This document shows positions 63,001 to 64,000 of a stretch of 64,000 nucleotides of DNA, piece after piece. Made by a program: the position numbers. The stretch is from assembly GCF_016026235.1 (NCBI RefSeq), contig NZ_CP065614.1; one strand, 5' to 3'. Each line of letters begins with the position of its first letter. Positions within the stretch are counted from its first letter, which is position 1. The DNA is from Escherichia coli (GTDB taxonomy: Bacteria; Pseudomonadota; Gammaproteobacteria; Enterobacterales; Enterobacteriaceae).

Positions 63001-64000
63001 CACAATCTGCCGGTTACGCCGAATCTGCTGAATCAGAACTTTACGCCCACAGCACCTAATCAGGTCTGGGTCGCAGATATAACGTATGTTGCCACCCGGG
63101 AAGGATGGCTGTATCTCGCTGGCGTCAAAGATGTTTATACGTGCGAAATTGTCGGTTACGCCATGGGAGAGCGCATAACGAAAGAGTTGACGGGTAAAGC
63201 CCTGTTTATGGCGCTCAGGAGCCAGCGCCCACCTGCCGGGCTAATCCACCACACCGATCGAGGTTCACAGTACTGCGCATACGATTACCGGGTCATACAG
63301 GAGCAGTCTGGTCTGAAAACATCAATGTCGCGTAAAGGTAACTGTTACGACAACGCTCCGATGGAAATCTTCTGGGGAACGCTGAAAAATGAAAGCCTGA
63401 GCCACTATCGTTTTAAGAGCCGGGATATTTCGTCAGCATACGGGAAAACTGATTGAGGTCGGCCTCAGTTTTGAGGCCTTTAGCCAGTTCAGCCGCAAGG
63501 GCTTTAAGCTTCTTTTCGTCCATAATTTACCTGTCTCCGTTGTTGGAGTAAACATATCAAAAACAGGCAATTACACAATTTAAATTACAGTCTCAAAACA
63601 AACCCAACGGTCAATATAGTTTACCAGCAAGCTTACTAGCAAAGTGCTAATCATTTGGTATCTTTCGTGCTATTCTCCTTTTACGTAAGTACTTAAGGGG
63701 AACGTATTTACTACTTTTAAAGAAAGCTCCGTTACTATCTGAAATGCAATGAGATAATAAACGATTACTCTCGGTTAGTATCTCATGATCATTTACAGAC
63801 TTTGCATAATCGCGAATACTATATAACAGAGTTTTAACATTACAGGATGAATAGTCTCTCTTATCAACTCCTAATAAAAGAAGGATTATGGTCAGTCGTT
63901 TTTGCTGTCTTATCATATATTATTTAGTGCAGTTCCTAACAAAAACATAACAATTTTCTACAATTGATCCTGTGACTACATAAATATCTTCAACAAAAAT

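Follow-up and report, generated by a model that had tools for sequence, protein, structure and literature searches.

SPA-ORF11, a small and genuine gene at the right-hand border of the invasion-plasmid type III secretion island in an Escherichia coli sequence window

The window considered here is a stretch of 64,000 nucleotides from Escherichia coli (contig NZ_CP065614.1 of assembly GCF_016026235.1), the AT-rich end of which holds a truncated transposase start and an 89-amino-acid open reading frame (ORF). As judged by sequence identity, this end forms the right-hand edge of the ipa-mxi-spa entry region—the type III secretion system (T3SS) pathogenicity island of ~30 kb on the invasion plasmid (pINV) of Shigella and enteroinvasive E. 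coli (EIEC). The ORF is SPA-ORF11, which conservation and substitution patterns mark as a genuine protein-coding gene, fast-evolving under purifying selection. The identity and anatomy of the segment as a pINV island border are close to certain. The favored explanation as a whole—island border and SPA-ORF11 as a genuine gene, with a much less certain role as an accessory modulator of the T3SS—is regarded as highly probable. The entire segment is already known sequence, consisting of the pINV entry-region border, SPA-ORF11, and insertion sequence (IS) scars, and the end of the window resolves into a textbook locus with the scars lying beside the island.

The border of the ipa-mxi-spa island

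From position 63400 onward, the window matches pCP301, pCFSAN029787_01, and ~110 other Shigella and EIEC plasmids at 601 of 601 bp, and no difference from pINV was seen. The carriers of these identical 601 bp are S. flexneri (pCP301), S. sonnei, S. boydii, S. dysenteriae, and EIEC (pCFSAN029787_01). The locus of the EIEC plasmid, L001, in which a locus coordinate equals the window coordinate minus 54399, shows what lies past position 64000. Its minus strand carries a YmgB/AriR-like coding sequence (spa-orf10) at L001 9634–9867, corresponding to window-equivalent 64033–64266, and then spa40, spa29, spaQ, spa24, spa33, spa32, spa13, spaL, spa15, mxiA, and mxiC; the same gene order is present in pCP301 and pWR501. 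Because the spa and mxi genes continue past 64000 in identical plasmids, the AT-rich end of the window is assigned to the right-hand border of the island. The original prediction had proposed that acquired genes, and not only IS or non-coding DNA, would appear when the sequence was extended past the window, and the run of genes from spa-orf10 and spa40 to mxiA agrees with it. The end of the window is laid out as follows.

62341–63426, plus strand: IS600-like (IS3-family) relic, 3'-truncated; Pfam matches HTH_Tnp_1, rve, and HTH_21, and annotation in pCP301
63427–63594, minus strand: IS256-family left-end fragment of 168 bp, recognized by identity to full-length elements
63595–63646, minus strand: spacer of 52 bp from the SPA-ORF11 stop codon to the IS256-family terminus, read directly from the sequence
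63647–63916, minus strand: SPA-ORF11, 89 amino acids, complete, with the exact Swiss-Prot sequence; ATG at 63914–63916 and stop codon at 63647–63649
63917–64000, minus strand: first 84 bp, at 25% GC, of a 116-bp spacer that separates spa-orf10 from SPA-ORF11; another 32 bp lie between the window end and the spa-orf10 stop codon, which starts at window-equivalent 64033

The base composition steps down along this layout, from a GC content of 0.50 in the IS600-like relic to 0.42 in 63427–63594 and 0.32 in 63595–64000, with 0.25 in 63917–64000. The whole window has a GC content of 0.48, which bears out the AT-rich end that had been noticed from the sequence. SPA-ORF11 has a GC content of 0.33 and a third-codon-position GC content (GC3) of 0.27, compared with 0.32–0.35 and 0.25–0.30 for the spa and mxi genes; the composition of the gene is of the island type, and its low GC is that of the whole island. 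Its position 3' of spa40 (SctU) and spa-orf10 on the same strand is confirmed in L001–L003 and likewise in five divergent islands. The minus-strand spa operon enters the window from past 64000 in the order spa40, spa-orf10 (orf131a), and SPA-ORF11, the last gene of the island, and the unique DNA of the island ends with 63595–63646.

SPA-ORF11 as a protein-coding gene

The ORF at 63647–63916 runs on the minus strand, has an ATG start, and encodes 89 amino acids as predicted. Its product is the exact Swiss-Prot entry "Uncharacterized 10.4 kDa protein in spaT 3' region," alternatively named SPA-ORF11, with a computed mass of 10,430 Da (10.43 kDa) and an isoelectric point of 10.0. From gene order and naming, SPA-ORF11 appears to be orf131b of pWR100 and pWR501_0167 ("spa-orf11") of pWR501. 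The neighboring SPA-ORF10 is orf131a (PMC5658099), and the published orf131a forward primer matches the gene just upstream of SPA-ORF11. Hence, SPA-ORF11 is already catalogued and, if it equals orf131b, has been deleted in the pWR100 mutant collection.

Conservation of the ORF was followed first among close and then among divergent plasmids. By tblastn, SPA-ORF11 is found in 114 pINV-type plasmids (103 from Shigella and 11 from Escherichia), 105 of them at an identity of at least 99%, and each of the 14 sampled Shigella variants has full length and a single missense change. A homologue of 47% identity is encoded by pRHB04-C17_2, an E. coli plasmid from sheep with a divergent Mxi-Spa-like T3SS. 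On this plasmid (L004), an intact orthologue of 83 amino acids directly follows the SctU gene and a YmgB-like gene, and four further contigs (L010–L013) feature the same order of SctU gene, YmgB-like gene, and 83-amino-acid ORF at identical spacing. The DNA 3' of the ORF differs with the lineage—IpaH-like, OspC-family, or other genes, or the IS256 scar in Shigella—and homology between the divergent Mxi-Spa-like islands stops within ~10 nucleotides past the orf11 stop codon. Between Shigella and the divergent islands, synonymous sites are saturated (proportion of synonymous differences, pS, 0.73–0.88), and frame, start, and length are kept. The sole insertion or deletion between the Shigella and divergent-island ORFs comprises six whole codons, and six lineages have an intact ORF with an unchanged start.

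The substitution pattern points in the same direction. When L010 is compared with the other divergent lineages (synonymous divergence, dS, 0.66–0.81), the ORF retains 76–78% nucleotide identity and the adjacent spacer 58–60%. The ratio of non-synonymous to synonymous differences (pN/pS) amounts to 0.34–0.47 in the annotated frame (binomial P = 1e-4 to 8e-3) versus ~1 in the two shifted frames, the three comparisons having the L010 branch in common and, hence, not being independent. The new value is modest: a gene dropped by automated annotation is conserved and, as the substitutions show, under purifying selection in divergent Mxi-Spa-like islands. SPA-ORF11 marks the conserved end of Mxi-Spa-type islands, for which the evidence is new but likewise modest.

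The divergent Mxi-Spa-like islands are rare, with their version occurring in just two PLSDB plasmids. They comprise the island of pRHB04-C17_2 (from a sheep farm; CP058010.1 40688–56930) and those of several metagenome and read-archive contigs. Their Spa proteins are 69–94% identical to those of Shigella at saturated synonymous sites. On the 3' side, they are followed by split-looking IpaH-like ORFs with leucine-rich repeat and novel E3 ligase (LRR/NEL) parts (L004 8877–10840), by an OspC-family gene (L012 7251–8696), or by sslE.

Several points weigh against the favored explanation. The ORF is left out of the current RefSeq annotation by the Prokaryotic Genome Annotation Pipeline (PGAP) and of the pCP301 annotation, no Shine-Dalgarno sequence lies upstream of orf11 in any T3SS lineage compared, and no protein-level detection of SPA-ORF11 was found. 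Close pairs give ratios of non-synonymous to synonymous divergence (dN/dS) of 0.56–0.59, which are not significantly below 1 for too few differences. SPA-ORF11 evolves three to five times faster than sctU and orf10, with 46% amino acid identity between islands versus 71–94%, and such fast evolution is also compatible with weak constraint or with an effector. The gene is disrupted in a few Shigella strains and therefore seems dispensable in culture. The equation of orf131b with SPA-ORF11 comes from gene order and naming.

In the disrupted copies, the frame is broken after codon 48–57, for example in NZ_CP026804.1. One of them (P0028) runs on into sequence identical to an antisense ORF at window 61919–62107, which suggests an IS-mediated rearrangement into SPA-ORF11.

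The omission by PGAP and in pCP301 and the lack of a Shine-Dalgarno sequence would also suit a spurious ORF, in which case the segment would be only the 3' untranslated part of the spa transcript or decaying non-coding border DNA. The ORF has no match in Pfam, NCBIfam, PHROGs, or PADLOC, and ORFs of at least 85 amino acids arise in ~1% of shuffles; a closed ORF of at least 89 codons is seen in 37 of 5000 shuffles (0.74%) of the 406-bp AT-rich segment. However, a spurious ORF would not be expected to stay intact from the same start in six lineages with one indel of six whole codons, to be depleted of non-synonymous changes in the annotated frame alone, to be better conserved than the adjacent spacer, or to share profile homology with annotated proteins on other plasmids, and this explanation is largely refuted and very improbable. 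The proposal of the original prediction that the ORF is the edge of a different acquired gene with its body past 64000 is refuted by the extended sequence in L001: AT-rich foreign DNA does continue past the window, as proposed, but the ORF belongs to the T3SS island and is complete within the window from ATG to stop, its start column is invariant across the family, and the next gene, spa-orf10, is a separate coding sequence 116 bp upstream.

The signals around the gene fit transcription from the operon. No terminator-like hairpin occurs between spa40, orf10, and orf11 or in the 63595–63646 spacer, and the sole such hairpin in the scanned region lies within the IS256 fragment. Promoter-like matches in this region are at chance level, and the region has no Rfam match. 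No MxiE box lies near orf11 at up to three mismatches; the three matches present in other parts of L001 are no more than chance would give. In published RNA-seq data, spa-orf11 changes by a log2 fold change of −4.19 in anaerobiosis and of +2.85 and +4.07 in the fnr mutant (PMC4229854, Table 2), values in the middle of the range of the ipa, mxi, and spa genes (PMC4229854). The entry of this table, pWR501_0167, corresponds to SPA-ORF11 as far as name and gene order indicate. SPA-ORF11 is probably transcribed by read-through from the VirB-dependent spa operon because neither a terminator nor a MxiE box separates the genes and because the published RNA-seq data show co-regulation.

Protein family and possible function of SPA-ORF11

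SPA-ORF11 belongs, by profile comparison, to a tiny unnamed plasmid family. An exhaustive profile search of 1.84 billion representatives returns only the Shigella and E. coli T3SS forms and one credible distant relative, P0030 (E = 4.8e-4). The latter leads to proteins of 86–96 amino acids whose genes occupy the traT–traD interval of the tra operon on many F-like plasmids of E. coli, where the genes run traG, traS, traT, SPA-ORF11-like gene, gene for a 243-amino-acid hypothetical protein, traD, and traI (770 index blocks). In addition, plasmids of Serratia and Klebsiella encode tail-less relatives of 59 amino acids close to ssb-like and parAB genes. In a profile search of 5.8 billion proteins, the family amounts to only 24 clusters, all "hypothetical" and devoid of Pfam domains. 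Alignment of the T3SS group with the other groups by hhalign gives a probability of 95.9% (E = 5e-9) over 78 columns. The literature search found no described gene between traT and traD, and the homology link of SPA-ORF11 to the traT–traD gene family of F-like plasmids, as suggested by these profiles, is a new but modest result.

Two observations concern the plasmid surroundings of these relatives. The 243-amino-acid hypothetical protein has no Pfam domain and is always encoded beside the SPA-ORF11-like gene between traT and traD (L008 6438–7169; L015–L020 4429–5160); it could be a functional partner of the SPA-ORF11-like protein. On the Serratia marcescens plasmid pE36_1 (L009 5700–6600), a short DNA repeat with the translation "...FACET..." occupies several intergenic sites around the 59-amino-acid member and may be a repeated regulatory element, or one resembling a single-stranded DNA promoter, of the plasmid leading region.

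AlphaFold2 with a 20-sequence alignment models SPA-ORF11 at a mean predicted local distance difference test (pLDDT) score of 71, with 80–92 over residues 10–60; an earlier shallow alignment had given 56. The model features helices at residues 7–14, 25–41, and 44–64 and a disordered basic tail. The protein is, hence, predicted to consist of a helical domain of ~60 residues and a disordered tail, and the tail of the T3SS forms carries the motif K-[YF]-x-P-x-K-Y-L-x-K-R-[KR], which is conserved in the Shigella and E. coli islands. The 20-member family alignment, like SPA-ORF11 itself, has no meaningful match in the four domain and family collections named above. The sequence profile search of the Protein Data Bank (PDB) returns designed helical hairpins only, and Foldseek hits against the PDB have E values of 3.8 or worse. 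Two candidate relationships were rejected: orf11 as a YmgC- or YmgA-like partner of the AriR-like orf10 (hhalign at most 0.2% to YmgC, YmgA, YcgZ, and AriR) and orf11 as a relative of Hha/TomB (hhalign at most 0.2%, no Pfam HHA match).

The role favored for SPA-ORF11 is that of a putative small cytoplasmic accessory protein that modulates the expression or activity of the T3SS in a mildly negative sense, although the assignment is tentative and put at somewhat less than an even chance. The protein would be co-expressed with the apparatus and act inside the bacterium, mildly restraining the T3SS, and would not be an injected effector. A cytoplasmic accessory role is favored because homologues are encoded in the tra operons of F-like plasmids and on other plasmids that lack a T3SS, because the N-terminus appears to be a conserved, folded hydrophobic helix and not a polar disordered signal, and because Orf131b is absent from the reported secretome hits of the type III secretion apparatus (T3SA) (PMC5658099), an absence of evidence only. 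The mildly negative sign is favored because the published deletion mutants of orf131b and of orf131a both show stronger Congo-red binding than the wild type (PMC4267944). This phenotype is a single screen observation that could be polar or indirect, which adds to the points weighing against the reading.

Nearly as well placed, if doubtful, is the explanation of SPA-ORF11 as a hitch-hiking gene of the plasmid backbone that was captured at the island edge and has no T3SS-specific role, possibly helping to establish or maintain the plasmid or acting as a general regulator. The relatives between traT and traD on many F-like plasmids, and those that neighbor ssb-like and parAB genes on plasmids of Serratia and Klebsiella, fit such an origin, as do the IncF derivation of pINV (by replicon typing) and the tolerance of some strains to disruption of the gene. 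However, each of the divergent Mxi-Spa-like islands examined has retained the gene directly behind SctU and the YmgB-like gene despite saturated synonymous sites and differing flanks, its GC and GC3 match the island and not the plasmid backbone, and it is co-regulated with T3SS genes (PMC4229854).

That SPA-ORF11 is itself a T3SA substrate and effector, injected like Orf131a and using its basic C-terminal tail (KYLRKRRIARK) as a nuclear-localization or nucleic-acid-binding signal, is judged unlikely. The neighbor Orf131a (SPA-ORF10) is a validated T3SA substrate (PMC5658099), and low GC—a hallmark of T3SS substrates—fast evolution, small size, and a basic tail motif conserved between the Shigella and E. 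coli islands all suit an effector. However, the protein is unreported in the ipaD/mxiD secretome (PMC5658099), and no MxiE box of the late-effector type lies upstream of orf11. Its N-terminal 15 residues appear to form a hydrophobic helix (RLTIILLLLG; residues 7–14, modeled by AlphaFold2 with moderate confidence) that is conserved in non-T3SS plasmid homologues and would not resemble a disordered polar signal, and homologues with the same basic tail occur in F-like tra operons.

A broader idea, offered as a long shot, makes SPA-ORF11 the T3SS-island representative of an unnamed plasmid-restricted family with helical domain and basic tail, a shared modulator that would tune the expression or gating of the costly secretion machines of plasmids (T3SS or type IV secretion systems). 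If this holds, the family could act, for example, by contact with the export or coupling machinery or through the H-NS-based silencing that affects these AT-rich operons. Returning to SPA-ORF11 as a putative modulator of the T3SS, conservation and family link together provide a concrete handle on one of the last uncharacterized genes of a heavily studied virulence locus.

Insertion sequence scars and comparison with known systems

The transposase start noticed next to the ORF is confirmed as a remnant of an IS256-family element. The 36-amino-acid ORF at 63413–63523 (minus strand) opens with MDEKKLKALAAELAKGLKTEADLNQFSRMLTK. The DNA of 63427–63594 is ~94% identical to DNA annotated "IS256 family transposase" in more than 400 E. 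coli genomes. It also matches, at 93% identity over 168 bp, the 5' end of a full-length element carried by a Salmonella IncFII plasmid; the 399-amino-acid transposase of this element matches Pfam Transposase_mut (PF00872; E = 3.6e-108). In pairwise alignment to this element, similarity starts sharply with GAGACTGTAATT at 63594, the outer end, and ends sharply with ...CTGACGAAAT at 63427. The remnant retains the first 32 codons, beginning with the ATG at 63523, and ahead of them a 71-bp leader and the terminus (GAGACTGTAATT... at 63594); no DDE/Transposase_mut domain (PF00872) is found in these 32 codons. The fragment derives from a member of the family yet is non-functional, an inactive scar. 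The full-length element showed no terminal inverted repeats at the inverted-repeat search settings used. A tblastn search with the 32-amino-acid N-terminus gave no match—probably because of the low-complexity filter—and the DNA search then gave the matches.

The same 168-bp fragment is, at 94% identity, a recurrent truncated pseudogene in more than 400 E. coli chromosomes. In the E. coli 1303 chromosome (4100386–4103753), it adjoins an H-NS-family gene.

The IS600-like relic features orfA at 62393–62695 and orfB from 62731, the latter losing its own sequence at 63426; its last own residues are ...SHYRFKSRD, and the ORF reads on into foreign DNA to 63456. Pfam matches are HTH_Tnp_1 (E = 4e-19) in orfA and rve (E = 1e-25) with HTH_21 in orfB, the organization of IS600 and the IS3 family—orfA with a helix-turn-helix (HTH) motif and orfB with an rve core. 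The relic is annotated as IS600 ORF1/ORF2 in pCP301 and as an IS3-family pseudogene by PGAP. It is just 92% identical to the IS600 copy at window 39474–40559, and its 3' end is missing.

The relic and the IS256-family fragment are both internally truncated at one junction, 63426/63427. Because both elements are cut at the same junction, a deletion or rearrangement is inferred, as a simple insertion would not give such a structure. An IS256-family element would once have inserted 52 bp past the SPA-ORF11 stop codon, its outer 168 bp surviving, and a later deletion or rearrangement would have joined this remnant to the internally truncated IS600-like element, leaving both as dead scars.

Further traces of IS activity surround these scars. 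The 3' end that is missing from the IS600-like relic is found directly upstream in inverted orientation at window 62119–62328 (minus strand) and includes the ORF MESFWGTLKNESLSHYRFKSRDEAISV...; 87 bp are common to both pieces at 98.9% identity. The pieces at 62119–62328 (minus strand) and 62341–63426 (plus strand) look like nested or rearranged IS scars. In pWR501 (S. flexneri 5a M90T; L003 3500–4766), an extra intact IS600 lies within the relic at window ~62740. It is absent from the window, pCP301, and the EIEC plasmid, and because of its lack the window is taken not to be of the pWR100/pWR501 lineage. IS elements flanking the ipa-mxi-spa island are known to mediate spontaneous loss of the island (PMC5629016). 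Two hypothetical-protein genes are located amid the IS scars, at window 59708–60424 (plus strand; 238-amino-acid predicted membrane protein, WP_005059327.1, in DNA of ~30% GC) and at 60964–61380 (plus strand; ORF of 138 amino acids, WP_011114759.1, annotated as 134 amino acids).

Each part of the window end has a known counterpart. The IS600-like relic shares with IS600 of the IS3 family the orfA/orfB organization with HTH_Tnp_1 and rve but differs by its 92% identity to the bona fide copy in the window and by the lack of a 3' end. The IS256-family fragment has the left terminus, the leader, and the first 32 codons at 93–94% identity to full-length enterobacterial members of the family (PF00872) but spans only 168 bp, without catalytic domain and right end. 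The ORF in the window is identical to the SPA-ORF11 of Shigella flexneri in Swiss-Prot, both in its 89-amino-acid sequence and in its position after spa40 and spa-orf10, and differs from it in nothing.

SPA-ORF11 and Orf131a (SPA-ORF10), the YmgB/AriR-like T3SA substrate, are both small, AT-rich, and encoded at the spa operon's end (PMC4229854, PMC4267944, PMC5658099); the two genes share their regulation, and deletion of either one gives a mutant that is more Congo-red positive (PMC4229854, PMC4267944). However, SPA-ORF11 has no AriR/YmgB sequence similarity and no PF10798 match, evolves much faster (46% versus 71% amino acid identity between islands), and has no reported secretion, whereas secretion is reported for Orf131a (PMC5658099). 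With the F-like traT–traD proteins (e.g., WP_001077900.1) and the 59-amino-acid forms (e.g., BEM75572.1), SPA-ORF11 shares the core motif R-L-x3-L-x-L-L-G-[YIV]-D ... L-L-x-S-I ... A ... E-L. The F-like forms have, in addition, the C-terminal Y-x-P ... basic cluster in common with it (the RRR(R)K/RRTR equivalent), whereas the 59-amino-acid Serratia and Klebsiella forms lack the tail. Both groups of relatives differ from SPA-ORF11 by an identity of just 20–31%, by a higher GC content, and by their location in a conjugation operon or plasmid maintenance region and not in a T3SS.

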